From Botryllus schlosseri (lineage: Eukaryota): DNA of 64,000 nt. The stretch covers positions 3,846,001 through 3,910,000 of the forward strand of contig CM119373.1 in NCBI GenBank assembly GCA_051294905.1. Reading direction: 5' to 3'. A program made the translations under genes and the position numbers. Below, piece after piece: positions 7,998 to 34,600 of this stretch. The notes under the pieces were generated by a model, which saw nothing but the letters and a program-made list of their open reading frames with translations, was not told where the DNA came from and made no database searches. Position 1 is the first letter of the stretch. Every line of letters starts with the position of its first letter.

Positions 7998-8276
7998 ACT
8001 AACGGTAACCGGCCTCTAAACCGTTTCCGATATCACTGTTTCCGTGCTTACTGCTGCCGAATCACAAAATATCAAAAGTTGTGGACGTGAGACAATTTTA
8101 CTATGAACTGCCGCAATCCTGTTTGGTTTCATAATAAACAAACAGAAGAAAATACAGGCGAGCCTGAACACAAAATTGAAAAATTCCAAAGACGAGGAAA
8201 ATGACGCGTTCGTGAGGTGGCGCCATCGTGCGGAATTTATTCAGTAACCTTTTCATTCCGCGAGATGTCGCTGTCG

Positions 8277-11200
8277 TCACGGCCTTTGGTAGACCTTCAT
8301 CTCCAAGCAACACAGTATGACGACACCATCCCGATCCCACCAGATTCCATCCACCAGATTCCAGTCCCCGTTCGGGTAGCTTCGGCTTAGGCAGGTATGC
8401 CACCAGCCTCCTTCGTATGGAGAAGCACAACCAGATGTTGGGGAACCCACGTCCTTCGTTGAGAATTGTGCATGGTTGTTGGGAAGTGTGAGAGGATCTC
8501 CGACATCCCCGGAGTATCCGGATATGTACAGTCTGTAGAAGTCGGATCCGGGTCCGATCCGGAAGTCGCTGAAAAATAAGAAACGGATCGTTTTAAAGTC
8601 TTTTCAAAACCAGTCACGCGTGGCAAGTGTTTTGTTGGTCCGCTCACTCAGGTTTTAAAGGAAACTGGACATTCGCATTGGGGAAAGTAATCGGTTTGTC
8701 CACTTTCTTGAATTTACGCTATATTTCAAATTTGTCTATGAATCGATACGTAGTAATCAAGATCACCTGTATTTCGCCACCAGATGATATTTTTTGCCTT
8801 TCCTCATCATGTTGATTTCCAACGACATGTCGTCTGCCTTTGTCAATTGATGCAATGTCTCGAGCCCTGGAAACAAAACGTTGTGAGATGATAAAACGCG
8901 TTTGTTTTCAATTTTCGCCGTAAAAATGCCACAGACCTCTAAACGACTGTTTTCGTGATCACAGAACCAGGATTTGAAGAGACTCTTTGGGGTACAGAAC
9001 TTTTATATAGATTTTAATAATATATTCATACTAAAATATATTAAAACCCGAAGCTTTTCGAGCTGACACTTTTCAAGGGCAATCGTCAGCAAATGGAGAA
9101 TTTCAAAAACATGCATCTAGCAACATTGCATACAACCAATTATGACGTCATAGAAACAAACAACATGAAATCATAGTGTCCTATATGGTGTCGACACAAG
9201 CAAATCTCACGGTTCAATGAAATTGTACCACGTCATACTTTATATTTAATCCAAGGCAAATTGACGGTGATTTTTGACCGGCTTGCCGAGCATTAAATTT
9301 GATGAATCGGGTATCAATCGAAAGCTGACGCTGTACTGCTTGCGAAAATATAAATTTTATTCCCCTCATGGCCCTGGAACCCCCACAATCAGCCCCAAAT
9401 TATTCATTGTTGAGTAGATTGGCAGTGTGACGCAACAATGCTGTCTGGCGAAACGAGAGTAGCTCAAGAGCAAGGATGTGACCGAGCGGCGAGAGTGGGA
9501 TCAGCTAACGTCGCGGCAATAACAATGTGCAACCGCGCCACAGAGAAACGCTGCGCTGTTGATACTTTTTCTATGCGCTTCGGTACAAGCGAGCACACAC
9601 CAGTGTTGGGATGACTCGAGTCATGACTTGACTCGAGTCAGACTCGAGTCAACTTTTTCGAATGACTTGACTTGACTCGAGTCACTTTGCAAAAATGACT
9701 TGACTTGACTTGACTCGGCGCTTCAAAAATGTGGATTGACTCGTGACTCGGAGCAGAATTTACGAGTCAATAGGCCCATTTACATGACGCTTTAAGTCAG
9801 CTTCGAAGCTGACTCGTCGATCCGACTCTCTCGTATTCGATGAAGAGAGAAAGGCAAACTGCCTCAAGTCGACTCAAGCCTCAAGCTGTCGGGTAATGTG
9901 GTTTACGATCGGCTTGAGTATTCGGCCATCGGCGTCCCGCGATTTTCGTTCGACGGCGCTGGCTTTTGCCGCGTGGGCTCTTGGCATCGTAATTCATGTT
10001 TTTCATCTGTTGTTGAGAAATTGGCCAAACATGGCAAGGAAAAGTGGGGTTACTTTGTAAGTGCTCGCTTGTTTACGATGGAATGCATGTAATACACCAG
10101 TACCGGTGTAGCAACCGTGCTCTTTTATGACAGTCTTATTAGCGATTCCCTGTGTGTTCTTTGATATTTGGCTGCGACGCTTCGATCTGTAGTAGCCTAG
10201 TTGCTGTCATCAGCTACATAAAATGGCAGACAAGGTAAAACGTTACATCTGTATTTCCGCTTCTCAGACTAGGCCTATACAGTGCGGAAGATATGTGGAT
10301 TGTACCGGTATTACAATTCGACTACGACATGCATAGTGAACTGTGCATAGTGTGCTACATCGATACGGGAATACATGAACGATTGCTGCATTTCGTACAT
10401 ACTGTTCCACTGGCTAAACTGATGCGAGCGCGCGTGTGATGGGATGGAGCTGGTGTCTCTCCCGGGAGGATGATATTGAGATTTGTGACTCTCCTGGTGA
10501 TGATGAAGCGCAGCGGTGTTGAGAATATTGCTTTGTTTTTAGTTCTGGGTTCTGAGTTATAGTGTTCTGCGGATATGATGCGGTCGTGCGGGTGCTCACG
10601 ATTTTCAACTTGCCCTTTTGATATTGTTGGTTTTGAGATTGTATTCATGGTAGCCTATGTGTTTGTTGTGAGGGTGCTGAAATTGGCACTTCCCAAAGTT
10701 TAATTGGTGTGTTGTAGCAGTTTAGTAGTAGTGCTCTATATTGCTCTTTGTGGCAGTTTTTTTTAGACATTCTTGGTATTGTTAACTTCCTATTTGGTAT
10801 ATCATGCCGAAAAGATGCTTCAATAATGTCTCTGCAGTAGTTGCTGTATCGTGACTCTTGAGTCACCGGCATACATGGGGTAGTCTGTTACAGAGGAGCG
10901 GCCGAACAACTAGAGGGAACATGGGGTTTGCAAGTGGGTCACTGACCTTATTTTAACCGCATCGACAAGTGATGCCTGAAATATCAAAACAGTCGTTACT
11001 CCCGCCTACTCCACGGCCCATCTTCGTTGACGCCGAAAAAGCTAGCTGATAACTTATACTTGTTTTTTTCCTCTACAATCATGATATGAACAAGATTATT
11101 TTCCTCTACAAATATCGATATTATGAGTATCTCATCATCCTCGTTAATTTCGAGGATAAGAAACGTTTCAGAGTACGACCAAACACACATTGTCGTTGTA

Positions 11201-14200
11201 CCTTTGCCCACCAGACTTACTACGAATATAAATTTGTAAGGGGTAAAGCGACACCCGGTCGTCCACGGTACAGCTTCCTGAAGGATCATGTAAACAGGGC
11301 CCTTTTACGAGTCAGCTCGGAGATGAGGCGTGACGTCACCGGAGACGACTTGAACGCCAAGTCGAGTTGAACATGTAACCAGGCCTAATTTCAAGTCATC
11401 AAGTTAACGGTGTCGACTAAATCAATGTATTTTGTGCTTGTTCGCATTATTCACGATACGCCGTTGTAACTTGTGAGAGAAACCACTGATTGTACGTTTC
11501 ACTGATCTTACATTGTTACATAACAAATACACTGACCGCAAACGAAATGATCACAGCTTGCGCTGTCGTAGTTGCAGATTAATTTAATAGCAACGTATCG
11601 CTGTTTATTGGACGACAATGTCCTTACATTGCACGGCGCTCACCTTTACCAACCATCTTGTATGATTTAAATCGATCAAATATATTTATGCATTCATATC
11701 CTCACGTATGTGTATAGATGACTAGTGTAGTGTACGATATCAATTTCTTTCATCTTCTCGAGGCTTCGTATTCGATCCTATATTTTGGCTGATAATAAGA
11801 GAATGTAGCGTGTAGCTCAGAGTTGTCAAACTCAACTGACGTCGCGGGCCGCAGCAGTCAAATGATTCCAAAATATTACTAAATCTTAAGTAAATATATG
11901 CACTTTTCCGCATTCTCGGAATTGGGTGTCAATGTCAGCGATTTTCTCCCGACGATGACTACAATTACAACTCCGCTGTCGGGAAGGTATAATGTGCTAT
12001 CTTGAAGGAATATTTATTAGTAGTATTTCTTACTACAACTTCGAGAAATGTGTTGGATAAAATCACGCAATTTTCAACATATACTCAGAATTTCTTCTCG
12101 GGCCGAATGAAATCATTTGGCGGGTCGTATGTTTGACGCACCCTTGATGTAGCTATACAGTTACTTACGTATTTTATGAGCAGTTCTACTTGTGCGTGAG
12201 CGATACAACGCATTTTTGCATGTATATTAAACTTTATATTCGTTATTTGATTAAAGATGAATGATCAATTGATCTCTTTAACACAGCTAGTAAAATATAA
12301 TGAATTTGAATGATCATGATCACTCATACATCGAAAATTCAATTTGACTTGAATTGTGACTTGACTCGTGACTTGACTTGACTTGACTTGACTCGAGTCA
12401 CCTCCAAAAAACGAGTGACTTGACTTGACTCGAGTCACCTTTGAAAATCGATTGACTTGACTTGACTCGAGTCAAAATGTGCAATGACTCGATATGACTC
12501 GTGACTCGAAGGCAGTGACTTGATCCCAACACTGGGCCACACACCAACCTTTCCTTGACTTGTGAGGGTAGAACTGGGTCCACAGAATGTATTTGGTCCC
12601 TACCAATTTTCGCGCAATATCCTTCAGCTGATAGAGATATGTAGGCTACGTCTAAGTAGTTTACATTGGATATGTCAGATTATTATGATATCGATTGCCT
12701 TAGCCCACTTGTTGCGTAGGGCTCCAGAGATGCGTGGCGCTGTTGATTATTTCTATAGGCGCTTCGCTAAAAGCGAGCACACATTACCAGCCTTTCCTTG
12801 ATTTGTAAGGGTAGAACTGGGTCCACAGAATGTATTTAGGCCCTACAGATTTTTGCGCATTATCCTTCAGCTCAGAGAGATATTTAGGCTACGTCTAAGT
12901 AGTCTACATTGCATATGCCAGTTTATTATGATATCGATTGCCTTAGCCCGCTTGCTGTGTAGGCCTCCAGAGACACGTCGCGCTGTTGATGGCGGCGGGT
13001 GTCGATACTTTCTATAGTCGCTTTTATTGTTAAGTGTGAACAATGAGCGTTGAGCATGAGCATACATTACAAGCTTTTATTTGATCCGTAAGAGTAGGAC
13101 TTGGCCCGCGAATGCAGCAGGTAAAATGTTGATTGTTGAATAAAGTTTTACAGCAGGAGTGTCGAATTAAACTGGTATCGCTGTCCGGATTCAATCCGTT
13201 ACTAGAAAGCTTGCGGGCCATACCTGCCAAATGATTCCAAAATGTTACCACCAAATCTATGCCTTTGTTTTTCACTGGAATATATCTGATATCACTATAA
13301 ACATTGACGTTGGAATTTGGTTTATCATTTTTTAGTCACCAAACAGTTTTTTTGAATGCCGGGGACCTTTTGCGTCAAAAGTAATACAGTGGTATCACAG
13401 ATATTTGAATTATTTTCATTCTGTAGCCTGTATTTATATTCCTAATGTAACTTACGTAAAACGGATTTGCAGTATTTTTTTTCGCATCTGTGAATAACTG
13501 AATGTCCATTGTCCATTCGGCCCAACAGAGTTTGCACTTTTTCGCCTTCTCAGAATTTGGTGTCAAGGTAAGCGACGTGGTGCTAATGGGGACTAGAGTG
13601 AAAACTCAACACTGTAGTTGTATTACTACAATATGATATATTTACATTATCTAAATTTGCTGTCTTGAATGAATCTTATTACTTGAAAGTATATTTTTCT
13701 TACTAGAAATTTAAATTTCTGTTTGAAATGTACTGGGTAATACAAACATTCTTCCATTTACTTGGAATTTCTTTCCGGGTCGGATGAAGTCGTCCGGCGG
13801 GCCACATCCTGCCCGCGGGCCGTAGGCTATGTTTTACATCCCTGATTTACTCTTATGGCGTGAGGTATTTGGAGACTTGCAAAACCTCGCTTTGTTGACT
13901 AAAATGTCCATCCCTCTCTTATGGTGACACCTTAGCCATTAAATAAATGAGATATTTGTGTTTAAGTGGTTGCAAAGTTACTAGAAATATATTAAATAGT
14001 CAATTGCTGTATCCCTGGCTGCCCATGGTCGACGGCAAAGGCAAAGGACTTGAATACGACGAAGTCATTTTTCAAAATACCACGTGTCGACTTGGCTAAA
14101 ACTGACGAAGAAAGGTCACACAGGGAGGAGCTTAGAAGGCTTGTTTTATCTATGCGAGATTCACACAAATATGATAATATAAAGTTTCAGCTTAAAAAGG

Positions 14201-17200
14201 AGAGGTAAATATTTCGATCCCTTGTTTTCCCTTGATAATACATATTGTGTCAAATTTTCGGAGATCGTTCGTTAGTAATTTCTCTACTCAAGTAGCAGTA
14301 GAAGTGGCGATTTCCAAATAAGTAAAATAGTAATTAGTTTAGGGCCTTCGTCTAAAAAAGACTGAAAACTTGTGAATGAAAGAAGACGTTGCCTAAAATC
14401 ATAACCACGTCGGTAAGTAGCCTAGAAAAAACCTACTTGAAAACGTAGCAGTGTTGGGATGACTCGAGTCATGACTTGACTCGAGTCAGACTCGAGTCAA
14501 CTTTTTCGAATGACTTGACTTGACTCGAGTCACTTTGCAAAAATGACTTGACTTGACTTGACTCGGCGCTTCAAAAATGTGGATTGACTCGTGACTCGGA
14601 GCAAAATTTTCGAGTCAATTTCAAGTCATCAAGTAAACGGTGTCGACTAAATCAATGTATTTTGTGCATGTTCGGATTGTTCACGATATGCCGTTGTAAC
14701 TTGTGAGAGCAACCAGTCATTCACTGATTGTACATATCACTGATCCTACATCACAAATACACTAACCGCAAACAAAATGATCACAGCTTGCATTGTCGTA
14801 GTAGCAGATTAATTTAATAGCAACGTATCGATCTTTATTGGACGGTTCTGTCCTTACATTGCACGGCGCTCACCTTTACCAACTTGTATGATTTAAATCG
14901 AACAAATATATTTTATGCATTTATATCCTCACGGATGTGTATCGATAGATGGCTAGTGTATTGTACGATATCTATTTCTTTCATCTTCTCAAAGCTTCGT
15001 ATTCGATCCTCTATTTTGGCTGATCATAAGAGAATGTAGCATGTAGCTCTGAGTTGTCAAACTCAACTGACGTCGCGGGTTGAATTCAAATATTCAGATC
15101 ACTCGTGGGCCGCACAGTGATGAGCGGAGTCTGCTTTTCGAGACTCCGAGTCCCTCCGGCAACTTTCGTCTCTGATGCAAAGTCCCTCCGACTCCGGGGA
15201 TCTCAATCCCAGACTCCGAGATAACCCGAAGAATCTTGTTCAGTCTTCGAAATATATCCAGACCATTGTCGAAGAATCCCAATCGATGTTTTCGATAGCC
15301 TGTCTGATATTCATACCAGTTATTTTAGTTTTTTTAATTGCCGAACAGTCGCAACATTAATTCTGAGAGTCAAGTTCTCTCCAACAAAATGGACAGTCAA
15401 GCAAATAGAAATGCGACCCTTTAGATCGGTCCACATCACATATCTGAGTTGATGCCAGCCAGCTCATAACACTTGATAGCAACTCTTAGTTCCTCTGGCA
15501 GCTTCTGCTTCAAAGATGAAGCCTCCTCATCCAACTTACGTTTCACCGTAAATCTGGATGGCAAAACATCTTCTGCACAACACCACGGCAAACCGGCACT
15601 TCTTCGGTATTTTCCACCCGGCGATCAGTGTTCCCCATGATCACCTTCTCCTTCGATTACTCGCTTACTTGCATTTCAACTGCGATCAATTCTTCTTACA
15701 AGCTTCGATATGTCTTCGAAGATGCGACGTACCACGTGTCAACTTGTGATGCTTTAGCTCAGGGCTGGCCAACCTTTTCAGCCGAAGGGCCACATTCGAA
15801 CGACGAAATATTGCGCGGGCCACTAGCCGCGCGAAGCGCGAAAATTTTTCTAAGTTCATAGCTCAATAATATTGTCACTTGACTAAATTGCGGGCCTGCA
15901 GTATATCGCTGGGCTAAGTTTGCCAGTATTGGACTATTCAGCGCCTGGACAAATCAATTTCGAAAGCTTCGACCAACATGCGTCAATCATTTTGTGCCTA
16001 GGTTTCATAGTCGACGGTCTTTCTGCGAGCGCAAACGCTAGGTCGCATATGTTGAACGACACTTTGTCTCGTAATCGAGAACATAGTTAGACTCAATTTG
16101 ATACATTAGACGTTCTTTCATTTTCACAAAGGGGTAACAATATTAAAAGCAAGAAATCGGATGACTACATGTTGCGCGAAGCGTGTAGAAAATATTTACT
16201 TTTGATAAATTTATCGCAAATTATTCTGCTTTGTAGTGTACGAAGATCTACCAATATCTGACTGGCTCATGGAAATGCCAATGCGTCGTAACTGATATTT
16301 TAGTCATCACATTTCAAGTGTTGCGGCGAAACTAATCAAATTTTTGGTTGGCCTTGCAAGTTCACAATCTGTGCAATTCATTTTTTTATAACATTACCAA
16401 GTTCGGAAATTACCTCGCGGGCCACTCAAAACCTCCTCGCGGGCCACATGTGGCCCGCGGGCCACGGGTTGGCCGGCCCTGCTTTAGCTGAACATTGCAA
16501 TTTTGACATCTTGCAAACCCAGTATACTGGCCGTTATTATCATGCAGCATCAGAGTGAAATCCTTCCACACGTCACTCTTTCTCTGCGTCTTTGTGAGTA
16601 ACCCACTTGAAGTCGACGGTGCTTCAGCCATTATATTAAAACGACGAAGGAAGACCAGTCAGTTCGAACTAACTACCACTAACACCACTGAAATCGACGA
16701 TCACATCACAGGTTTCAGTATATGAATTTTCGCATCGCCATGAACCAGTTGATGGAACTGCACTGCACTAAACATACATGATGCATCACTGACGCACCGA
16801 TCGACGACGCTCCTTGGAGTTGACTAAATGACTAGTGACTTCCAATTTTGAAGCTGATACATGATATCTGGAATTTGGAGTCTGAGACAGACCAGCAGCA
16901 GAAACTTGATTGCGGTGCTGATTTTTCTTATCACATCAAAGTCATTTTTCAATCAAACCAAACATTACATGACGAAAATTCAGAAGAGTTCTGGATGACT
17001 GACTACGTCAATCAATATTGAAGGAAGCGTAGTTGAGTTGATGCGAGCAGAGCAAAGCAGACGGGTGTAGTTATTTAGTGTGGCTGTTCAGAATTTCGGA
17101 ATATTCTGTCATTACAGGGTAAGATCAGCTTACCTTAGTGATTCATGTATTGTTGAAATCTTAGATGCTGGTATGCCTCTGTGAGCGGATCTTACTAGCG

Positions 17201-20200
17201 AAAATTCGTCGCAATGTCATTAAATCATGTAACACATTGCATAAGTTATTATTGTTTCCATCCAGATACTTGCTTGTTGTATATTATTGTTTCCATCCAG
17301 ATACTTGCTTGTTGTATGTATATTTCTCACAGATATAAAGGTAATATTGATGCAACACTTATTATCGATATCTCTTACTGCAAATTGCAAGTACGATGAA
17401 AGTTGCGAAAAGTTATCACAAAAGTGGTATCGGATAAATTATCTTGTTTCAACTGATACCAACGTTGGGAATACATTTTCACAAAATGGACCTGTTACTA
17501 TGTTGAATGTCATCAGGATAATGGGATATATTCCGTTATGATCATGAACTTGCTGGAAGAATCAGGGTAGCTAAAGGCTGTACCATAGGGAAGCCCCGCT
17601 GTATGTTGCTGATTGTAAATGTTTCGCACAATTACTGGGGTAGCATGAAAATTAGTCACGAAACAAATACGCAAGGAGGAATGTGATGTGACTATACGCA
17701 AGGAGGAATGTGATGTGACTATAGAAGACCGCAATGTCAGCAACGTGGAAGATTCTGGAGATCTTATCTCATAATATGGTGACATTCAGCAGTGGATTCA
17801 AAGACTGCATCTCAAGGCAGGGAGCAAATGATGCACTGCGAATGATATTGGGTGCCTTCAAGTTTGTGAACTACAGACACTGCTCAACGGAAATGCCTTG
17901 CTAGATCACTAGGTTACTCTCCATTGCAGTGCAGATGGCTGATTTTTGTGCACTTGGCAATCATATTACCGGTCATATTACAACTTTACAAGGTGTCAAC
18001 TGTCTGTGTTTGTAATCAATAGTGTCTTCTGGTCAAAGCTATCGAAAGATATCGGGGGCAAAACTTAACAATGCTCCGGAAAACTCCGGAAAAATATCTG
18101 TTGTAAACTCCGACTCCACTCCGGGTATCACAAAATTGGCAAAACTCCGCTCCTAATCCACTCCGACTCCGCTCCGGTGCTCATCACTGGGGCCGCACCA
18201 GTCAAATGATTGCAAAATGTTACTAACTCGTAACTCCATATATGCACTTTTTCGCATTCTCGGAATTGGGTGTCAATGTCAGCGATTTTCTCCTGACGAT
18301 GACTACAATCACAACTCCGCTGTCGGGTGGTTATAATGTGGCCTATGAACATACTCAAAATTTGCTATCTTGAAGGAATATTTATTAGTGATATTTCTTA
18401 CTACAAATTCGAGAAATGTGTTGGATAAAATCACGCAATTACAACAGATAGGCCTACTCAGAATTTCTTCGCGGGCCGAATGAAATCATTTTGTGGGTCG
18501 TATGTTTGACACCCCTGATGTAGCTATTCAGTTACTGACGTATTTTATTAGCAGTTCGACGTGTGCGTGAGCGATATAACGCATTTGTACATGTACTTTA
18601 ACTTTATATTCGTTATTTGATTCAAGATAAATGACCAATTGATCTCTTCAACATAGCTAGTAAAATATAATGAATTTGAATGATCACTCTTATTCGAAAT
18701 TTCAATTTGACTTGAATTGTGACTTGACTCGTGACTTGACTTGACTTGACTTGACTTGACTCGAGTCACCTCCAAAAAACGAGTGACTTGACTTGACTCG
18801 AGTCACCTTTGAAAATCGATTGACTTGACTTGACTCGAGTCAAAATGTGCAATGACTCGAGATGACTCGTGACTCGAAGGTAGTGACTTGATCCCAACAC
18901 TGAAACGTAGAAGTGGTTAATTACGAACCACCTTTGGATGTAACAGTCACGCTATCTAGAATTTCAAAGTTTGTTGCTAAATATCTTTTCCCGATACATT
19001 TTACACCCGTATGTGACTTAATTATTATCATCCAGCTTGGAAACTAATTATATGCCATTCAGCTATAGCAGGGGTGGGCAATTATTTTTCTCCGCGGGCC
19101 AAACGAGAAACCGAAAATATGTTGGCGGGCCGAGTCATAAATTTTAGCTGTATTCTCCAATGTATTGATTTTATTTCAAAATTGAAAGTAGTGAATTACA
19201 CTAAATGGTGCTCAGTGGATGTTTTTATATTGGGAAATGAGGAAGTGACGGTTAATTACCAATAAAATATTTATTCGCCGTCATATTTCGAAACAATGTT
19301 AATCAGGATACGTGTTGAACTCTCTTTAATCCCCTATCCACGTTTTTCTGCCAATACATTAAAATGTATGTGGAATGGTCGAACAGCACTTCGTCAGTCC
19401 CCCTTCAAAAAAACGTTGGCTTTGGGCCCCTGTCTAGTTATAAACCAAAGTTGCCCCAGACCAAACCCCCATCGGGATGCACATTTTTAACACTACTTTT
19501 GAGTGATTTTTTTTGTATCGCCTAATCATCATAAATTAAAAGATCCACACGATTCCAAATTGGTATTTCTTTACTGCCAAATATTGCCTATGGACAATTG
19601 GACATCGTGGTTTTCGGTCAACATAAGGGCGGTCCTTTTTTTGCAAAACTTCATATATCATGGTGCGTCGTGGTCCGGTAGTCGCTGACGCCGAAATGCC
19701 CAAAATCTGTAGGGCCTAAATACATTCTGTGGACCCAGTTCTACCCTTACAAATCAAGGAAAGGCTGGTAATGTGTGCTCGCTTTCAGCGAAGCGTCTAT
19801 AGAAATAATCAACAGCGCCACGCATCTCTGGAGCCCTACGCAACAAGCGGGCTAAGGCAATCGATATCATAATAATCTGACATATCCAATGTAAACTAAT
19901 TAGACGTAGCCTACATATCTCTATCAGCTGAAGGATATTGCGCGAAAATTGGTAGGGACCAAATACATTCTGTGGACCCAGTTCTACCCTTACAAGTCAA
20001 GGAAAGGCTGGTGTGTGTTCGCTTTTAGCGAAGCGCCTATAGAAATTATCAACAGCGCCACGAATCTCTGGAGCCCTACGGAACAAGCGGGCTAAGGCAA
20101 TCGATAACATAATAATCTGACATATCCAATGTAGACTACTTAGACGTAGCCTACATATCTCTATCAGCTGAAGGATATTGCGCGGAAATTGGTAGGGACC

Positions 20201-23200
20201 AAATACATTCTGTGGACCCAGTTTAACCTTACAAATCAAGGAAAGGCTGGTAATGTGTGCTCGCTTTTAGCGAAGCGCCTATAGAAATAATCAACAGCGA
20301 CACGCATCTCTGGAGCCCTACGCAACAAGCGGGCTAAGGCAATCGATATCATAATAATCTGACATATCCAATGTAAACTGCTTAGACGTAGCCTACATAT
20401 CTCTATCAGCTGAAGGATATTGCGCGAAAATTGGTAGGGACCAAATACATTCTGTGGACCAAGTCCTACTCTTACCGATCAAATAAAAGCTTGTAATGTA
20501 TGCTCATGCTCAATGCTCATTGCTCACACTTAACCATAAAAGCGACTATAGAAAGTATCGACACCCGCCGCCATCAACAGCGCGACTTGTCTCTGGAGGC
20601 CTACACAGCAAGCGGGCTAAGGCAATCGATAACATCATAATCTGACATATCCAATGTAGACTACTTAGACGTAGCCTAAATATCTCTATCAGCTGAAGGA
20701 TATTGCGCGAAAATTGGTAGGGACCAAATACATTTTGTGGACCCAGTTCTACCCTCACAAGTCAAGGAAAGGTTGGTGTGTGCTCGCTTGTACCGAAGCG
20801 CATAGAAAAAGTATCAACAGCGCAGCGTTTCTCTGTGGCGCGGTTGCACATTGTTATTGCCGCGACGTCAGCTGATCCCACTCTCGCCGCTCGGCCACAT
20901 CCTTGCTCTTGAGCTACTCTCGTATCGCCAGACAGCATTGTTGCGTCACACTGCCAATCTACTCAACAATGAATAATTTGAGGCTGATTGTGGGGGTTCC
21001 AGGGCCATGAGTGGAATAAAATTTATATTTTCGCAAGCAGTACAGCGTCAGCTTTCGATTGATACCCGATTCATCAAATTTAATGCTCGGCAAGCCGGTC
21101 AAAAATCACCGTCAATTTGCCTTGGATTAAATGTAAAGTATGACGTGATACAATTTCATTGAACCGTGAGATTTGCTTCCGTGGCCCTGGAACTCCCACA
21201 ATCAGCCTCGAATTTTTCATTGTTATTGAGATTGGCATTGGGACGCAACAATGCTGAACAATGCTGTCTGGTTCCTTTTTTCTTGAGCTACTCTCTCGTT
21301 TCGCCAGACAGCATTGTTACGTCCCAATGCCAATCTCCATAACAATGAAAAATTCGAGGCTGATTGTGGGAGTTCCAGGGCCACGAGCGGAATAAAATTT
21401 ATATTTTCGTAATCAGTGCAGAGTCAGCTTTCGATAGATACCCGTTTTAATGCTAGGCAAGCCGGTCAAAAATTACCGTCAAATTGCCTGTAGCCAAATG
21501 GAAGTTGTGACGTGATACAATTTCACTGAGGCGTGCGATTTGCCTGTGTCGACACCATATAGGACACTATGATGAAATACAGGCAAACCGCGAGCGCAGC
21601 TAGTGGCCAATTTTTAGATTCACTAAAAATTCCTTCTGCTGACACAAGCGCGTTCGGTGGATTTTAATATAAGTTTTTTCAGTGCAGACAGATGGAAATT
21701 AGTGCGGCCTCTACCTAATATAGAAAATCTTTCATCGCGATAGTTTTTAGCGCAAGTTGCATACTCAGCCAAATGGTTGCCGATGGCAGAGTTCATGCCC
21801 ATGGCCTGATTACGTTCTAGTAATCGCAGATCAGTTACGGCTGCGTCTTCGCGAGAGTCCAATGTGCGTGATCTAATAACGCTCGGAACATGTTGTTTGA
21901 TGCGTTCCTGCAAGCGATGAGTTGTTCTTCCCACGTACCGACAATCACAGTGGCACTTGAAATCATAGACTATATTGCTTTGTTGAGAAGCAGGAAGAAC
22001 ATCTTTGCGCGTTGCAGGAAGCAATTGTTTGGTGGTAAACACAACATTAGTTTTTACGTTATCGTAACAGCGATTGCAATGCAGGGCTGCCGTATTTTCG
22101 TGGCTCCAACTATGGACAGTATGCAGCGCCTGCTAGCAGGGTTTGAAAATAGGTAGTGTAGCGGTCCCTGCAACGACTTGTTGCAAGACACGCTGGTATA
22201 GTGCTTGAGTGGAGTGGAGTGGAGTCGACGCTACAGCTACAGTTCCCGTTATACGCACTAGTCCACTGACTAATGACCGCTCTGAGTATACTCTTGCAAT
22301 CCTGATCACACACGCAGATCAAAGGAGCTTTCTTTAATAGCACAGAACAGCCAAATAGTAGAAATTAGTGGTCAGAAACTTGTAGATTTACCAGGTTCAA
22401 ATGATACTGCGGTTCAATAGGAAATAGAAAGAATAAATGATGCGAAATGGAGCCAATTGTCTATCTTACGACTGAAGCGTGAGCGCGCCGACCTCAATAT
22501 GCGGGCTCTGAGACCACGTGCGTCGCAGACTGCCTGTGCCGTCACGCTTGTGGCTTCGAGAGTGACCTACTTACGCTTTCGCGTACAACGGAATTGGGAC
22601 AGCCATTTACAGGTAGGGATATCTTGTCTGTCAATATGGCGTCACAAGACCAACGCTTTGCCTATAGATGGCATGGGAGTGTATTTTGGGACATTGCGTT
22701 TGTGCGTTGCAGCCAAATTTACCAACTTGAAAGAGTCAAGTTACAACCTCCCTACCGAGCCAGAAATCTCCATCACGATCCCCGAATCCGTTCACATAAT
22801 CATCCCAACCACGATTAAAACTCACGTTTCCGTATTTTCTGCGCTGGAAAACCTGAAACGAAATTCAGCAAGTACAATAAAAGTCGCAGAAATCTCACGA
22901 ATTGTCTTGTTTCTTCGAGGTTATGGTTCGGAATTTTGTGTCGCTTTGACCCGCGATTTAAACTTCCGTTCGTCATAAACCTAGGTTCATATCTGAAAGA
23001 TTAAAAATTCTACTCACAGTCCATTTCTCGAGTGCAGCACGTCGTTTTTGTTTGTGAAACTTCATCTCTGAGTAGCGCAGGAGGTGAGGTGAGGGGAGAT
23101 CTTGATCATCACCACCATCCAACCACCACCAAATTCCTTTACGGTCTGTTTTATTAAAGTTTCCATTCAGATTGCTGGCGCTGCAGTTGCCATACCACCA

Positions 23201-26200
23201 GCCTCCTTCGGCCCACTTAGAAGAGCAATTATCTGACGACCAATCGTCGTGATCCGCGTCATTCGTCGAGAATTGTCGATTGTTATGATATATGAGAGCA
23301 TTGTAGGTTGCATTCCCGGAGTATCCGGACACGTGCAGCGTGTAGTTCTCGGATCCGGATCCAATGGTGAAGTTGCTGGAAATGAGAAATGAAGTTAGTT
23401 TATACAGCTCAGTGGTTCGGAGTCTTATCGAACCAGTCGTGCACGACAAGTATTTTGTTGACTTGCTCACTCAAGCACCTTGCACTTGCACTTTGCACTT
23501 TCCGAGAGAACTACTGACTTTTCGCGTTTTGCGCTCTGACTCGATGTGAGGTGGAAAGCGGTTATGAATGACACACTCTGGTCTGTCATGAGTCATGATT
23601 GGGGCGACTATTTGGTGATGTAAACAATGAGGAATCTTGACCCAAAAATTTTGACCGGGAAAAAATTATCTTGGCAAAATTTGTAAACAATTTGTGGCTA
23701 ACGCTCTAATTTTGACTTATTTTCGACAATTAAAAACAATTACCACCATAGTCATGACGCGAGATCAATTATTTGATGCATTCGACTGGAATACAGCTCA
23801 CACTCACCTGTATCTAGCCCACAAATGTTCTATTTTATATTTCGAGATCATGTTGATTTCCAACGACATGTCTCCTCTCTTTGTCGCTTGATGCAATGCC
23901 TCGAGTCCTGGACACAAAACGTTGTGAAATGATAAATCGCGTTTGTTTTCAATCAATTACGTTCCAACGCAAATGCCAAAGAACGCTACACGAAGTAAAA
24001 TATTTTAGTCATCACAGAATCATGGTTGTAATGATTCGAGTCGCGCTTTTTTGTTGACTCGACTTGACTCAAGTAATTTTCGTAATTACGGAAAGTGAAT
24101 CGACTCGGCTTGATTAGATTTGTGCGACTTCTAGTCGAGTCAGTGCGCATGGCACGGCCAAGATAGGCATTTCATTGTAGCTTAGATGAATAGAAAGTTA
24201 CCAAAGTATTGGTATTATGTCTGTGTGGTACTTGAAAAAAGGGCTGCAAATTTTGAGATTCAGGAAAATCACTATTAGGACCATCACCAAAGTAATTCAG
24301 GTATTATTTGGTTTAAAATCCTTGAGCACTTTTTGTCAAGAATGTTATAGTATGGTGTCAGAATCTATTCGCCAGTCGAACTATAGTAAAATTGAGTGAG
24401 TTCTAAATTAAATATTTAATTCGATGAAAATATTGACCAAACATATTGACGTAATATATATATATATATATATATATTTAAACAAATGAGATATTATCAA
24501 TTTGATGGCAGCCTAAAATAACCCTGGTTGTATTCATATACAGACGACTCATCTTTTTATTCAACTGACAAAGTCGCTCATATTCCGTAAGGCTTAATGA
24601 AAATCAGCTATTAATTTGATCATAACGCATACACGCAAGAAACATTAACAAGATGTTACAAGGTGGTCATCTCGATTAACACATCTGTACATCATGCGTA
24701 TTTCTATTTCGACCTATTTTTTATTTTTATTTATGAAGAAGCAGACCCTCCGCAGCCATTACTTTTCCACGCAAAAATTCCATAAAACGCTACACGAACT
24801 AGGATATTTTTGTTATTACAAAATCAAGTAATTTATTACCAAGATAATGACCGAGTTACGATAACGGAAAAAATCCTACAACTTGAAGGAAACAAATTAC
24901 AACAACCCCACCGAGCCAGAAATCTCCATCACAATCTCCGAATCCATTCACGTAATCATCCCAACCTCGGAAAAAACTCACGTTTCCGTATTTTCTGCGC
25001 TGGAAAACCTGAAACGGAATTCAGCAACAAGCAATCATTGTTGCAGAAATCTCACGAATATCCGTTCGATGTTTTGGTCCAAAATTTTGTTCAATCTGAC
25101 TTCAACTTTTGTTCATCATAAATTCCACTCACCTTCCATTTCTCGTGTGCAGCACGTCTTTTGTAAATCTTCATCTCCGAGCAGCACATGGCGTCATCCC
25201 ACCCCCACCACCAGATTCCCTTCGAGTCCGTTTTGTTGAAGTTTCCATTCAGGTTGCTGTAAGTGCCTCTGTCGTGATACCACCAGCCTCCTTCGAATTC
25301 AGAAGCGCAATTCCAGTACGACCAAGCATCGTGGTCCGCGTCGTACGTTGAGAACTGTTGATTGTTGTGCATTGACAAAGCATCCCAGGTTGCATTCCCG
25401 GAGTATCCGGATACGTGCAGAGTGTAGTTCTCGGGTCCGGATCCGACACTGAACCGCCTGGAAATATCAAAAGCAATTCTCATTAGCCTACATCATTCTT
25501 TCCATTCGGCCAAAGGCTATTTACGCCGCTAATCTATAAATTTTCCCTCGAAATTTGCATCGTAGTTGAGTTTGGTGATGACGCAGCAATGGCCGATTGC
25601 AGCCGACTGATTTTCAAGCTCACCTGTATCCCGCCCACCGATGATCCTTTTCATCTTTCGACATCATGTTGATTTCCAACGACATGTCATCTGCCTTTGT
25701 CAATTGATGCAATGTCTCGAGCCCTGGAAACAAACGTTGCGAGATAAGGGGAAAAAGTTATTACATAATAATTACTCAGAGCCAGACAATGACCAACAAA
25801 ACGTTGTGAAATGATAAAACGCGTGACGCGAAATCAAGTTATTTATGACCAAATTACCGTATCGACAAAATTCTACGACTCAAAGCCATCAACATCTTTC
25901 TCACCGAGCCAGAAATCTCCTTTGTGATCCCCGAATCCATTCACGTAATCATCCCAACCTCGGAAGAAACTCACGTTTCCGTATTTTCTGCGCTGGAAAA
26001 CCTGAAACGGAAATCAGCAACAAACAATCAAAGTTGCAGAAATCTCACGAATGGTTTTTTGTTTACGAGTCCGCCAGTCTACGGTCATGGTTCATAATTT
26101 TGAGTCGCTTCGACGGGTTTTCAACTGTTGTAGCCTACGTCTTAAACCAATGATCTGAAAGATCCCAATTCTACTCACAGTCGACTTCTCGCTAGCAACA

Positions 26201-26274
26201 CATGGAGTCTTCTCATCTTGTGCTCTGATTTGAAGCGGGTAACTCACGATTCCAAATATCAAAATAAGCCACAT
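8277..26274 (-). CDS. Secreted protein with three tandem fibrinogen C-terminal (FReD) domains; 10 coding exons, about 553 aa
   Basis: GT-AG exons that join in frame: 26274-26179 (MWLILIFGIVSYPLQIRAQ..., signal-peptide-like), 26001-25905, 25723-25624, 25457-25133, 25008-24912, 23907-23808, 23375-23018, 22852-22756, 8866-8767, 8568-8277 (TGA). Total 1662 nt. Each repeat carries FReD motifs VFQRR..G.VSF.RGWDDYVNGFG...GDFWLGLE.LH, Y.L..SGYSG, FST.D, GGWW, GIWW and EMK. Confidence 0.85.
9772..11386. mobile_element. PIF/Harbinger-like insertion
   Basis: Absent from the sister copy (empty site GTC-AAT-TTC). Ends AGGCCCATTTACATG / CATGTAACCAGGCCT; 3-bp TSD AAT. Minus-strand WSYSETFLILEI resembles a Myb/SANT-like start. 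Confidence 0.65.
11818..12146. mobile_element. Small hAT MITE embedded in the GACTT element (also 15049-18517 in copy 2)
   Basis: Ends CAGAGTTGTCAAAC / GTTTGAC..CCCTTG; TSD (G/A)TGTAGCT in both copies. Confidence 0.7.
15115..18189 (-). mobile_element. Defective hAT (Hermes/hobo-like) transposon with BED-finger transposase relic
   Basis: TIR CAGTGATGAGC / GCTCATCACTG; TSD GGGCCGCA. Minus strand from 16631 reads KSDVWKDF...ARCQNC..QLK | HHKLTRGTSHLRRHIEAC, then VLPSRFTVKR and DMWTD...LTVHFV, with stops and frameshifts. Confidence 0.88.
15760..16481. mobile_element. hAT MITE interrupting the BED finger
   Basis: TIR CAGGGCTGGCCAACC / GGTTGGCCGGCCCTG; perfect TSD CTTTAGCT. Confidence 0.9.
19705..20790. 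repeat. ~240-bp tandem repeat (about 4.5 units); about 2 inverted units at 12545-13085
   Basis: AAATACATTCTGTGGACCCAGTT recurs near 19718, 19961, 20201, 20443 and 20726. Confidence 0.9.
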
Positions 26275-26339
26275 CTTCAAATTTGAACTTGAAATTCAGC
26301 GAGATGTGCAAAAGCAACTTGATTTCAAATACATCAGCC

Positions 26340-26346
26340 TTATATA
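26340..26346 (-). promoter_or_regulatory. Candidate TATA box of the triple-FReD gene
   Basis: TATATAA on the minus strand about 65 bp upstream of the ATG at 26274. Supported by position only. Confidence 0.4.
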
Positions 26347-27505
26347 GTATCGGCTGTCAATTTCTAAAATAATTTACTTCAATTTTTAAAATTGAGAAAT
26401 TGTACTTCCAGGGATGCGATCCCGGTGATCTACGTACCCGTTTGATACACAATTTCAAGCGCGCAACCACTCAGGTCACAGTGATAGCAATGTCTGGCGA
26501 CTTCGACAGTGATTGATATTACGCGATTATTCTGAGATATAAAGTTAAACTTTTTAATATAAACTTGTCGGCACAATCTTGTTAACGATGCGTTTCCTAC
26601 TGTATTTAATAAGATAGATTATGGTGGGCTGATTGATTTATATAGATAATGCGACCTACTTTAACTGAGCCCTACAAACAATCACTTTTCCCCCAATATA
26701 AAACGCATGTATAAGTTCTACACAACCAACACTATACCATCAATTGCCATACGTTTGCATAGAATATGACAATTCGCTTCGTTGACTGCCATTTTGAGGA
26801 AGACAGCTTCCTGATATCGTTTATGAAATTCTTTGAACCGCATTTCTTAAGAAGCTCACGCGATCAAGCATCAGATCGGAGAGAAAGTTTCATTTGAAAA
26901 AGTATGAATCTAGCGAGATGTTATTACTCGTTTCACCGATCAACCGTTTTTGCAATGCAGTTTTTGAATATTTGCCATACGCAATAAGTAGCCTGCAGGC
27001 ATACCATCAGCATTGGACGGATAATTCTCCTTCGGATAAAATGATATTAAACATCCAACAGCGAGAAACTTTATATTTTCTGGTTCTCAAATCCCAATAC
27101 GTCAGCTTCATCAGTCCAATCTGATATTTCTCACCAATGCCAAAATAGTTAACTTCAGTTCAGACACGACCTGGTGTAGCCCACTGTATAATACACTGCT
27201 TATATCGTATACATGAGCTTATTTTGAGAAAATGGAAGTCTATATTAAAATAAACGTTAAAAACGCGACAGATCCCCACTTGCGCATTCCCAAGAAGAAT
27301 CGGATGAGCAAATTGTGATGAAATTTCTGTTTGCCTTCATATTATTCGATTGTACTTTGCTAATCGTTGAGCGTTGATTCAAAAAAATATCGTTCAAAAA
27401 TCATCCAAAAATATCATTAGCTATCAGCGATCATTAACCCGTTGTAGAGTGTAGATACTCATGGTTATGAAGGAGGGGGTGGAGTTAGGGCTGAATTGTA
27501 GGCTA

Positions 27506-28608: not shown

Positions 28609-31600
28609 AGTAGTGTATGTGATCGGTCGCGAGCTAACGTTTTTTGCATGGGGCTCTTATGGGCGGGGTGGCACGGTGCCGAGAAACCGGGGGTGGCACG
28701 GTGACCCTTATGTCTTATGGCGGGGGTGGCACGGTGCCATTGTGTCTTATGGCGGGGGTCGCACGGTAACCCTTTTCAGGATAGGCTGCGGCGGCACGGT
28801 GACGTGAAAACTCGTGGTCGTGACTCGCCTTTTTTGCTATAGGCGGTGGCGGTGATTCGCCTGTCATGTATTCTTACGGGATCTGTGGTGACTCGCCATG
28901 TGTTCTTATGGGTGCGGTCGTGAATCGCCCTTTCGGGTATAGGCATCTCTCGCACGGTGTGGAATATGTATCAGGTATATTGATCACGTGATTGGTCCTT
29001 AGTTAATGTTTACATTCCAAATTATTATATATGACCAATTTGAAGTAATCCCAACGTTTACGGTGAGTGCGGTATATTATATCGTTATTCTTATGGACGC
29101 GGCGATGATTCGTACTTTGGGGTAGAGACTGCGGGCGGCATGTCGTACTTTTAGCAAAAAAGGGTGTGAAATAGTTTGCTAAATCTAGGAATCACTTGCT
29201 TGGTAATATTTTGGTAATTAGTTTACCACAGAGCCGGCGTAGACGGTGATTCAAATACCAACAATAGCCGCGTTCACATACTAACACTTCAAAAAGGTGT
29301 GAAATATTTGTAAAATCCTACGATCGCCCACAAGATAACACCTCAGACATAGGCATCTTTCACGACTTGGTGTCATAACCATACCGATCGCTCACGCGGT
29401 GAAATTTTAGTAATCAGTTTGTCACAGAACTCGATTTCGCTGGTAAGATTTAATAAGTAACGACTAACAGAACCGCCAGTGTCGGTAACTTGAACAGCAA
29501 CAAATTGCCACTTATTTCCGTCCTAACCCTAATCCTTTGTGAAGTGAACGCTTATTCAAAAAGGTGTGAAATAATTTTAAAATCCTACGACCGCTCACAG
29601 GGTAATGCTCCAGACATAGCGATCGCTCATGATTTGGTGTTACAGACATACCGATCGCTCACAAGGTAATACTTCCGTAATTAGTTTGTCACAGAGTCGT
29701 CACAGACGGTGATTCGTAAACCAACAATTTGACACGCAATCGCTATATGTTTTGACACCTCGGATAGTGGTTGACTTTAGTTGCGTGATAAGTTCCATGA
29801 AAATATTCAATCAATGTATTAATTTGTCAACTAGAAATGAAACTCACTAAACAACTCAAGTTAATTCGTATCTTAATGTTTTAATTCGGTACAACTCTGA
29901 TCCTTTTAGAAATTCTTTTAATGCGATCTTTTGAATCGACCGTAACCTGAATATTACTGACGCCGACTTTCAGCCACATCGAATTATTCGCACATTCCGC
30001 GTCGCTGTTTTCACACCTATAGAATCAACACCAACTATAACTCTACAAGAATCAAGAATCACAAGTATGTGCATTATACAGGTATTGTCTTTATCAACTT
30101 GAAATCAAACTCTTAACAAAAACACGCAACTTATCATTTACCAACTCTAGTATTACCAAAAAATCAGGTAGGTCTATTGTTGATTGAAAATCCTTGAGTC
30201 CTTATTATCAAAAACGTTATAGTGCGGCGTCGGAATCCATTCGCGAGATGTACTAAAGGTAAATACAGATAACCCAAAATGAACTATCTCGACTTTGACA
30301 TAGTCTGAATTGAAATAGATTGACAAACATAACTACCAACTTTCACCCAGTCACATTTCGAAATTATACGCATATCGATTTGAAACAAGTAATGAAATAT
30401 TACAACTATATTCGCGATCGAACTTTCCGTTTGGCAAAGATAGTTTCAGAAATACTATCACTATGATATCTCAACATTTTAACATCTTGCCATACACAAA
30501 AGAGTAAAATACAAAAACCTTGTCAAGTCAATCCGTTTGTAACTTACCCAACCAACTCAACAGTATCCTTATGAAAAGTAGACAAGACTACGCGAGTAAT
30601 CACCACAATCCAAAATCCAAAGCAAGTTCGGTTGTATTCATAGTCCGCCAACTCGTATTTTTTTATTCAACTGTAAAAGTCGTTACTATTCTGTAACCTA
30701 AAGTAATTACTACTCGGTGCGCACAACTTGAGATTAACATATGTTTTGAGTATATGATATTTGAATGTCTGACCGATGTAGTTAAGAATTCATTTCTTAC
30801 GATCGAACACCGGTGTTACATTGAAAGTTATCATGTTGTAAACATTCTTATTAACACGTTGGTTTGACATACGAGATTTTGTAATTGTCGATCACGACTT
30901 GATTAATAAATTATGACTTAATTAGACCGGGGTTGTGTTAAAAGTTATGACAGCAACAAACTTTTAAGAAACATTGTTATCAACATATTGATTTGTAAAA
31001 CTAGATTAGCGCGCCTGAAATGTTCTTGATTTGAAAGATATTCCGTGTTGGTACAAATCACTCTGCGTATCACGGATATCAGAAAATATTTTTACAAATG
31101 TAGTTGTTTCCAGTAACCAAGACTAAAGATGACACAACAATTTCGTTATTCAAACATTGAACACCCGGCGCAAAATGCTTTATCGGTCAAATTCGTGACG
31201 GCTAATTGAAACGACTACGTATAGAGTCAGTATATTACAATTTCATGTCGTTACTATTGAATCCAGCAATTGATACAATTTGTTGTCGGAGTTGTGACAG
31301 CGCATTGAAACATACACAACTTACAGAGTGTGAAAATATCACTTCGGGTATCAAGTACCGTTTGAAGCGTGCGATCAATACATAATTCCGTTTGCACTCT
31401 CTAAGAAGTTGTGAAGTCTACAGATTTACACTTCAAGACTTTGATCAACATATAAGCAATTTGGAATATCTTTACTGGACGCATCCTATTCTACTAGACT
31501 TGAGTATACGCGAAACTCATAGCATTGACAAAATCGCAATAGGCGCTACACTGAAATCTACAAAATGTGTTTGTATTGTTGTTAGTGATCATAAATTATC

Positions 31601-34600
31601 ATTTGAATAAGTAATTGTAATCATAAAACCAAACTTGCGAAAGTCATTACCATAACAAAAGAATATTGTAGGTTGCTTGCTAAATGTATGCCGGAAATAT
31701 TTGTAGAACGCTCACGACCAAAGAAATCGGAAATTTCCCCCCATTGTCATTCGTCAAAGTATATGTTGTCACAATACTCATCCCGTAAAAGATCTTACTT
31801 GTATGTGATTGAATCGCCGGTAATCAACCCACTAAACCGAACTCCAAAGAAATTATACTCATTCGATGGATATGAAACAGCGTCGCTTAATCGGTCTATA
31901 CCGTTTTTCTAAAGGTAAATCATATCCATCCAATGGAAAACAATTTTCACTAGCTTGGTAATGAAACCGAAGTCTTCATTCAATATTTTGTTTGTGTCAA
32001 ATACTTTGCAATAAACACACTGGAGTGGTTGAGCTTTACATCATCAGACTGTAATCTGTAAATCAAGCTTACATCCGATTTGTAACTGTATTGTTTACCT
32101 AACCGAGTTGTATGCACAGTTTGATATTTTTTCATTTAGTGATTGTTGAACATACCACTTCGAAATACTGCGTTGATCATAATTTCCATCATCGCGATAA
32201 GCGAAGTACATTTGTTTTGAATTCATAACAATCGGCTTTTCTATGACATGATAAATTATTGACAAGTTCTGCTTAGAAGATTGGTTGCATATCACGAAAA
32301 ATAATATACCACTCATATTAATACTGTTACTCCATTCATCGGTATTTTTTCCGTTGTCGATTTTCAAACGAGTAAAATTTATTACTTGAGTTGCTCTGCT
32401 TACTATATTTAAATGTAAACTCGCCCGTCTTTCAACAACAACCAATGTTAAAAAAGTATGCAATCAAACACAACAAGTTTTACTGTAGGACACTAATTAT
32501 TATTCCACATAACTCATTTCTTACCGAAGACATATGAAATATATTCATGTTACACGAAAATACTCGATATTCGCTCGTGCTACGAACATACGCAATGATT
32601 GGTGACGCTTTCAAACTGTTTCGATATCACAAGAACTTTATTGTCTGAATGGGTGTTCATGTATCTTAATATTCAAATAGTTCAACACAGAACTAGTACT
32701 AACAGAAACATCAGAGCTGTTTACACAAAAGTTTGTATGTGTACAGTATGCGAATACCATGTGTAAGTCCAGCACAATTGCGGTATCCATCCGAGTTTAG
32801 TTAACACAAATTTATTACAACGGAGCCACGTAAACTTTCGTGAAAGAAAAGCAGACTCACTTCCAGAGGGTTATGTCAACGCCATAGCAGTAAATCAGCT
32901 ACTCCAACAACAAAGTACATATGTTTTCTGGTCACGGTCCTTACATCTTTCACACAGATCAATCTACTTTGCTAACGAAGAGTGCTGAGTCATCACATGA
33001 TTGCCCTCACAACAAAACAGCTAGAAGATATTATCATACAAAAATATTTTTAACCCTTTGCGCACCAGTGACAAATCATACAACAAACATTTTTGTGAGT
33101 CGAATTGTTGTCCAGTGTCAAGTCTACCTGTTGAAACGTACATTAAAACAACACAGTCACAATTCAATTAAAACCACGAATCTATTTTCATTTCGTCACA
33201 AACTGTCACATACAGAAAAATAAATTTTCTTACCCCAACACATACTTGTAACCAATCGCTTTCATTAAACACACAACTCCATAAAAGTATTTACTTTCTA
33301 CAACATATACATTCCGATGTAGTCAAGAAATATTTGTATTAATCAAAATCATCGATTTCTGTTCACGGCGTTAGTGTGTGCATGTCATACCTGTGGGCCC
33401 CGTATTAAAATGAACACGACACGACTGAATGTAAGGGGATAGAAGTCTATCGCATCGATTTACATGTGGTCTTCGCTACGGTTTCAAAAAACGAATCATC
33501 TATTTTGCATTGGTCGAGACCGAGCGAACCAGTTACATGTATTCGCGGTAATGATTTTGCTAGTCATATGCGAATGATAAGGTTGCTACTCCGACAAATC
33601 AAATCAACATACAACAATATTCTGACGATCATAATAGCAATTTCATTTTCCGCCCCTTCGTAATTGTATACGCACGAAAAGTATATTGTACAACTCGGCA
33701 ACTACGTTTAACAAGACCTATCACACTACCTGCGTTGAACACAAGATACCTACCCAAGTCAAAATATCATACTGGTTTGGACAACTGGCGTTTACCTGTG
33801 TAAAATTATTATTTTCACTTGGAGGTCAACCGTTACCTGACTAAAAATACCATTATCCTTTGGAGATCTTTGGTTTACCCAGAGTAACAATACATTTTCA
33901 CTTGGAAATCTATCTTTTCCCTGAGCAACAAACCATTTTCACTTGGCTGTCCGTCGTTTGCCCGAGTAAAAATATCATTTTCCTTTGGAGATCTTGCGTT
34001 TACCCAGAGTAACAATACATTTTCCCTTTGGGTTCTATCCTTTCCTAGAGTAACAAACCCTTTTCGTTAGCAAATCTATTTTTTTCCTACAGCAACAAAC
34101 TATTTTCACTTGGAAAAATACTTTTACCTAGAGTAACTAATCATTCTCTTTTGGAAATATATTTTCTCCCCGGGCAACAAACCCTTTTTGTTTGGAAAAC
34201 TATCATTTACCTGAGTACCAATACCGTTTTCACTTGGAAATCTATCTTTTCCCTGGGTAACAATACCATTTTCGTTTTTGAAAACTGACAACCACACCCG
34301 ACAATTTGATATTTTTATATATTGTTACAACGGGCAGTGATAAAATATGCACCAACAACCACTCCGATACATTTGTGTAATCGCATATTCACTTGTGCTG
34401 GTGCATCCCATCAAAATCATCGGTTACCCACATGCAATGCGCTCTTGTATATCGAAATGCATGTTTTCGGAAATTGGCCAATAGGTTGCAATTTGTCTGT
34501 GATGTCCGGGTTCGTGCTTTGGATTTTCCAGAGTCAAAATGTCTGAATAAAACACCTCCTCGACGATGGTTGGTATGTGGATAACGGTGTTCGGAAAACG

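Follow-up and report, generated by a model that had tools for sequence, protein, structure and literature searches.

A predicted Botryllus schlosseri gene encoding three tandem fibrinogen-related domains that lack subdomain A

Subdomain A of the fibrinogen-related domain (FReD), made up of a helix, two strands and a disulfide, is described as the subdomain most conserved in architecture (PMC5928061). The fibrinogen-like fold is regarded as always including it, along with subdomains B and P, the last strand of the domain running back into the B sheet (PMC5928061, PMC5693923). Several such domains can share a chain: Anopheles fibrinogen-related proteins (FREPs) with two or three fibrinogen (FBG) domains, most of them not full, were published in 2005, including the Anopheles gambiae proteins EAA05042, with three FBG regions, and EAA10466, with two regions and a hinge of about 20 amino acids (PMC1242226). 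In FIBCD1, Asp393 and Asp395 bind calcium, Cys401-Cys414 links the calcium site to the acetyl site, and the S1 pocket of Tyr405, His415, Tyr431 and Trp443 is common to tachylectin-5A and the ficolins (PMC3908420). Here we describe a minus-strand gene predicted in a 64,000-nucleotide window of the Botryllus schlosseri assembly GCA_051294905.1 (contig CM119373.1, 3,846,001 to 3,910,000; positions below are those of the window), whose product would carry three FReDs in one chain, each with B and P and without A.

The gene extends from an ATG at 26274 to a TGA at 8277 and consists of ten exons, all with AG acceptors and GT donors. Its spliced product of 1662 nucleotides (nt) encodes 553 amino acids plus the stop, with no stop codon inside the 553 codons. 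Exon 1 (coding part 26179-26274) contributes 32 residues, comprising a signal-peptide-like start with Kyte-Doolittle values of 2.6-3.4 across residues 1-11 and a tip, C-V-A-S-E-K-S-T, homologous to the linkers between the repeats. It is followed by an exon trio of 97, 100 and 325, 358 or 292 nt that recurs three times, with intron phases 0, 1 and 2 running three times through the gene. In repeat 1, the 97-nt exon spanning VFQRR to FWL (exon 2, 25905-26001) and a middle exon of 100 nt (exon 3, 25624-25723) precede exon 4 (25133-25457), which holds the P subdomain, the last strand and a linker; the same order is found for repeat 2 in exons 5 (24912-25008), 6 (23808-23907) and 7 (23018-23375), and for repeat 3 in exons 8 (22756-22852), 9 (8767-8866) and 10 (8277-8568), the last of which closes with the P subdomain and the stop. 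An earlier sequence-only reading had joined three apparent FReD fragments into one open reading frame (ORF), and exon number, GT-AG ends, open codons and repeated phases uphold it. The phase-0 GTGAGT donors that it placed at the ends of repeats 1 and 2 are both present (AAG/GTGAGT at 25133 and ACT/GTGAGT at 23018); both resemble the exon-1 donor, to which the one at 23018 is identical. The linkers between the EMK strand and the next VFQRR measure 12 and 14 residues, and the predicted product contains 12 N-glycosylation sequons. A TATA box candidate, TATATAA, lies at 26340-26346, about 70 nt before the ATG, and suggests exon 1 as the first exon, while an AATAAA is located at 8236-8241, about 35 nt past the stop; both are consensus matches only.

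The domain content of the product was examined with Pfam PF00147 (Fibrinogen_C, model length 221, curated cut-off 22 bits). Exons 2, 4, 7 and 10 score 32, 51, 57 and 32 bits, respectively, and exon 3 on its own has no Pfam match. In the model, the match of exon 2 starts at position 45 and those of exons 4, 7 and 10 start at 111-112; on the spliced product the B1 and the P/C-terminal profiles each match three times, as a comparison of sequence only. A profile of subdomain A, built from 77 pieces of 135 proteins and covering the 50 residues ahead of the QRR strand, was run against the 3902 six-frame peptides of the window without a significant match, the best having an E of 0.25 and lying 27 kb from the gene; the training set probably included its three positive controls. 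A second profile of this kind does not match the spliced product even when E is allowed to reach 1000, and tblastn of the window with seven canonical FReDs returns neither A-like sequence nor a fourth repeat. Start positions and both profile searches thus concur with the earlier claim that each domain is without subdomain A, and neither profile nor tblastn points to an additional A-subdomain exon in the window. The absence of a collagen or coiled-coil stalk holds as well, as only 32 residues precede the first VFQRR and exon 1 has no Pfam match. The proposed W-x-VFQRR start stands for repeats 2 and 3 and fails for repeat 1, which reads S-T-VFQRR and misses the conserved Trp.

By its B and P matches, the predicted product belongs to the FReD proteins, but not to the canonical full FReDs. 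In common with the multi-FBG invertebrate FREPs, some of which have signal peptides, it carries several, incomplete fibrinogen domains per chain via tandem duplication, with at least two of them in one open frame. The Anopheles truncations are mostly C-terminal and are partly put down to annotation (PMC1242226), whereas here exactly subdomain A is missing, B and P are kept, and the modules are joined at a phase-0 intron before VFQRR. A cysteine is located a few residues ahead of the W-T or S-T position both in exon 1 and in a paralogue linker, at the place where canonical FReDs read V-Y-C-D-M, which suggests that the linker, C/R-V/A-A-x-E/K-K/R-W-T/K, may be what is left of the last A strand.

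The introns record how the repeats arose. Introns 1, 4 and 7 share 100 of 121, 128 of 154 and 99 of 123 aligned columns in their pairwise comparisons, and for each of the three pairs none of 200 shuffles is as high. The tips of exons 4 and 7 can be aligned with roughly the last 25 nt of exon 1, and together with the homologous introns this defines a duplicated unit of exon tip, intron and three exons. Neither intron 4 (25009-25132, 124 nt) nor intron 7 (22853-23017, 165 nt) contains an AATAAA, ATTAAA or TATA motif, which, with their homology to intron 1, argues that the repeats form one internally duplicated gene. Intron 8 ends in about 100 nt that share homology with the 3' ends of introns 2 and 5, which makes exon 9 the expected continuation of exon 8. 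The ratio of nonsynonymous to synonymous divergence (dN/dS, by Nei-Gojobori, with dS between repeats of 0.41-0.49) is 0.43 for repeats 1 and 2 (95% bootstrap 0.27-0.69) and 0.60 for repeats 2 and 3 (0.39-0.90), and the VFQRR exons are under the strongest constraint (0.13-0.32). Together with the ratios for repeats 1 and 3 and for the middle exons given below, these values fit purifying but relaxed selection since the duplications. Past the repeat-3 stop, positions 8160-8276 show a weak likeness to the exon-7 tip plus intron 7 with an acceptor-like TTCAG/G end, at 2 of 500 shuffles with the exon-7 query and 441 and 140 of 500 with the other two; this may be the remains of a junction that once led to a fourth repeat, now lost.

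The three repeats differ in the residues that form the known binding site, as mapped through the protein P0016. Repeat 2 keeps both calcium Asp and both pocket Cys; repeat 1 keeps both Asp, with the second pocket cysteine (Cys414) replaced by Gly; repeat 3 has lost both Asp and probably keeps both Cys, one of which falls one column off in the alignment. Position 405 is F, W and Y in repeats 1, 2 and 3, position 415 is T, S and S by alignment (L in repeat 3 if the Cys is shifted) and His in none, the Tyr431 loop is shortened in all three, and position 443, Trp or Tyr in the acetyl-binding lectins, is W in none but repeat 1. His comes after the Cys414 position in 89 of 317 motifs of the wider family; as its absence is common, it speaks against acetyl binding and not against function. 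The product shares with ficolins, tachylectin-5A and FIBCD1 the B and P subdomains, the calcium motif (repeats 1 and 2) and the pocket disulfide (repeat 2 and probably 3). Unlike them, it lacks both subdomain A and a stalk, be it collagen, coiled-coil or membrane, it has three domains per chain, and their acetyl-site His and Tyr are absent from all of its repeats. Judged by these predicted residues, it is not of the acetyl-binding ficolin type, and the sequence does not show three equal lectin sites. Repeats 1 and 3 (exons 4 and 10) and P0006 carry, 2-3 residues ahead of the EMK strand, a Cys-Cys pair that is absent from canonical FReDs; it might stand in for the lost pocket disulfide of repeat 1.

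A FReD chain without subdomain A is represented in the Protein Data Bank (PDB) by 1FZD (fibrinogen-420 alphaEC, 201 amino acids deposited), whose alignment with a canonical FReD starts no earlier than residue 28 and which begins about 8 residues ahead of the QRR strand. Exon 2 aligns to 1FZD residues 10-44; in the other single-domain chains, tachylectin-5A excepted, the alignment starts at 42-57. 1FZD differs in being, as we take it, a single recombinant fragment rather than a natural gene design, the natural alphaEC domain presumably having the A part. Natural tandem analogues were surveyed among 285 database proteins, a set biased to multi-domain proteins because these head the ranking (best 150 of 7925). 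At least two FReD C-terminal halves occur in 70 of them and at least three in eight. Their 65 internal FReD junctions comprise 46 with an A hit and 19 without; in 14 of the 19, gaps of 43-192 residues, mostly cysteine-containing, separate the domains, and the remaining five, judged by eye, join last strand to first strand almost directly (P0165, P0176 and three cluster mates). The model of P0165, based on a 32-row alignment, shows two FReD folds with a mean predicted local distance difference test (pLDDT) of 81.3 and 10-residue blocks of 71-97 from residue 61; its first domain superposes on 1FZD with Z 24.1 and a root-mean-square deviation of 2.1 over 169 residues. A single-sequence prediction gives a pLDDT of 30.4. 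For the alignment-based model, the predicted template modelling score (pTM) is 0.56 despite confident domains, so a fixed packing is not indicated by it. P0165 is an analogue predicted for a well-known fold, and as such no proof of stability for the Botryllus protein.

No full-length orthologue was found by the protein searches or among the best 150 of 7925 matches of the representative search. The nearest relatives there are the Logan proteins P0006, P0139 and P0142, at 54-59% over the last-exon region. In a tree of last exons (59 rows, 109 columns, bootstrap not settled), the three last exons cluster with these proteins (support 96/94); within this group P0006 is the partner of repeats 1 and 3 (98/89), and P0139 and P0142, less firmly, are those of repeat 2 (90/70). 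By this grouping the repeats are not one another's closest relatives; either they would be older than those Logan sequences, or the gene would be a mosaic of family members. The headless analogues P0176/P0277-P0279 (JGI/IMG) and P0165 (Logan) fall outside this clade, in a tree with an unresolved backbone. In both, FReDs are joined from last strand to QRR-like strand by few residues, and P0176 has a signal-like start directly ahead of its headless first domain. They differ in having two repeats only and extra Cys-rich domains, and a common or a separate origin both fit the tree. The extra domains of the P0176 cluster look EGF- and trefoil-like by eye. A description of A-less tandem FReDs was not found in the literature searched, which comprised few subscription journals and texts without their supplements. 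The accessible sections of PMC10825690, PMC5693923, PMC8878817, PMC9835746 and PMC11401434 contain no A-less tandem case, and in those of a 2024 review of tandem-repeat lectins a term search found no mention of fibrinogen or ficolin domains (PMC11186620).

For RNA evidence, four of 24 listed runs, 3-13% of each, were aligned at 90% likeness to 22400-26700, a stretch that leaves introns 8 and 9 outside. The runs yielded 432, 120, 118 and 786 aligned reads (total 1456), of which 3, 0, 1 and 1 are at least 99% alike. In the three bulk runs, 97-99% of the aligned reads continue into unlike sequence and therefore come from paralogues and repeats; paralogues are expressed in all four runs. The junctions 25133/25008 and 23018/22852, at which the sequence-only reading expected splicing, were not seen with the locus's own letters in these four runs. 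Joints at 23085-25208, 25312-23234 and 25711-25927 were rejected as splices, as their non-canonical ends or foreign letters between mark paralogue reads split between repeats. In the single-cell run X1, three reads with three starts join an exon-4-like end, SEMKIYK, through 33 in-frame letters (11 codons, R-E-R-C-V-A-H-K-R-W-T) to a VFQRR exon, and three further reads, again with three starts, join an exon-4-like tip to such an exon via two other letters. The window's letter at position 25990 is not that of 14 of 15 X1 reads, which points to paralogues or diverged alleles as the source of most, if not all, joint reads. These paralogue-like reads show that a junction from FReD last strand to VFQRR exon is used in the family's RNA and so lend the single ORF indirect support, within the limits of 90-nt reads from one run with a shorter side of 26-30 letters, for which back-spliced RNA or a look-alike first exon is possible.

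We propose, with a probability of roughly 55%, that the gene encodes a secreted chain of three B+P modules for extracellular recognition or adhesion, with avidity provided by the chain itself. It would belong to a lineage-specific invertebrate FReD subfamily and would have been built by internal tandem duplication of a unit consisting of the 3' tip of the upstream exon, a phase-0 intron and three FReD exons. The heavily N-glycosylated product would consist of modules that each fold on their own, the 12-14 linker residues probably sufficing because the first and last strands lie close together in the central sheet. Carried on a flexible string, three unlike modules could give both avidity and breadth without stalk-based oligomerisation; repeat 2, with calcium site and disulfide intact, would be the likeliest main binder, of a ligand probably other than the N-acetyl group bound by ficolins. 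Exon structure, duplication unit, absence of A and unequal pockets are read from the sequence, whereas we infer folding, secretion, flexibility and role from the family. Several observations weigh against this proposal. The hydrophobic core of the putative signal peptide is short and is judged from hydropathy alone, and the subdomain lost is the one architecturally most conserved (PMC5928061). Repeat 1 lacks a conserved Cys and the conserved W, and repeat 3 the calcium site. The dN/dS of repeats 1 and 3 (0.66, 95% bootstrap 0.42-1.01) has an interval touching 1, and the middle exons, at 0.77-1.44 with wide intervals, are indistinguishable from 1. Repeats fill the 13.9 kb of intron 8, which contains 11 AATAAA. 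Only 5 of the 1456 aligned reads are at least 99% alike to this locus, and the five listed joints match none of the seven introns in 22400-26700, in four partly read runs with almost no locus-specific depth.

Part of this evidence could be accommodated if the architecture were real in the family and this copy were silent, decaying, or cut short in intron 8, with about two repeats made. We regard that as unlikely, though deserving of weight. The locus shows no junction reads of its own and few closely matching reads while its paralogues are expressed in four runs, it has lost the conserved Cys, Trp and calcium Asp pair, and read-through of exon 8 into the long intron, with its many polyadenylation-type motifs, reaches a stop after five codons. 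Against it stand ten exons free of stop or frameshift at dS 0.4-0.5, 18 of 18 splice sites being GT or AG and an overall dN/dS below 1 in two of three repeat pairs. The tissue of the partly read runs is unspecified, and diverged alleles or inducible expression would look alike. That three separate FReD genes or fragments have been wrongly merged, ending at read-through stops or retaining hidden A exons, is highly improbable. Such merging is common in tandem families, mis-annotation is blamed for some truncated FBG domains (PMC1242226), and the locus's own junctions are absent from the RNA examined; but the homology of introns 4 and 7 to intron 1 extends over their length, neither carries a poly(A) or TATA motif, the window holds no A-like sequence, and the same junction type occurs in paralogue-like reads. 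On this sequence evidence the separate-genes explanation appears largely refuted.

Two further readings accept the three-domain chain and give it a different fate. The basic runs K-R-R and K-Q-K-R-R provide dibasic sites in both linkers, and a polyprotein cut there would release three separate headless FReDs of different specificity, with N-termini 7 residues ahead of VFQRR, much like the 1FZD chain. However, basic runs past the EMK strand also end domains in P0009, P0139, P0142 and P0177, where no further repeat is shown, and the linker sites do not fit the furin consensus R-x-K/R-R, which makes such processing improbable. Packing of the modules round a pseudo-three-fold axis, mimicking a ficolin trimer, is the idea of the sequence-only reading, which saw in the product a possible single-chain pseudo-trimeric recognition protein. 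Three repeats, 12- and 14-residue linkers and the missing stalk are compatible with it, and ficolins are described as homotrimers (PMC10825690). This interpretation fares poorly and we find it very doubtful: the three pockets differ from one another, no repeat keeps the acetyl-site set with His415 and Tyr431, both analogue families have two repeats, and the P0165 model has its pTM of 0.56 despite confident domains. The weak trace of a further linker and intron past the repeat-3 stop (2/500; 441/500 and 140/500), if real, would make three an incidental number.

The surroundings of the gene are rich in repeats. Intron 8 (8867-22755, 13,889 nt, the AATAAA motifs being on the gene strand) contains two arrays of units of about 240 bp in opposite orientations (12543-12990 and 19702-20505), a 37-bp array at 12344-12474 and a 5-bp array at 18704-18842. 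A decayed, Penelope-like ORF remnant at 21623-22650 starts some 100-600 nt past exon 8; it has no Pfam match, and we take it for a GIY-YIG/Penelope-type retroelement end. Related copies of this ORF are transcribed: X1 depth at 22400-22543 reaches 292, and fixed differences set these reads apart from the window. Located 2.3 kb upstream of the gene, 28609-34974 and 35208-41574 are inverted copies of 6.37 kb, 98.9% identical and 233 bp apart, which reflect either a recent foldback-type duplication or an assembly artefact. Imperfect palindromes, 75-84% self-complementary, lie at 370-1651, 46895-47347 and 55306-55966 and resemble miniature inverted-repeat elements. Exons of an astacin metalloprotease with two ShK-like domains occupy 58575-61095 on the minus strand; overlapping them on the plus strand, a 241-amino-acid ORF (59044-59769) without a Pfam match reads, to our eye, like a retroelement C-terminus.

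The gain over what was known is modest, since multi-FReD proteins are already published and common in databases and a headless FReD has been crystallised; the expression and ligand of this copy are putative, and the copy may be decaying. More broadly, and as a speculation that we hold to be rather doubtful, it could belong to an undescribed secreted A-less family of animal FReDs in which B+P is a chainable module, a short conserved linker left over from the last A strand lets exon-unit duplication build single-chain receptors, modules pack together in place of A and oligomerisation, different pockets afford combinatorial recognition, and the same design occurs in at least two other lineages. 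If true, a natural secreted A-less family that chains B and P by about 12 residues would define the minimal FReD, and would show how multivalency can be reached without the help of a collagen or coiled-coil stalk.

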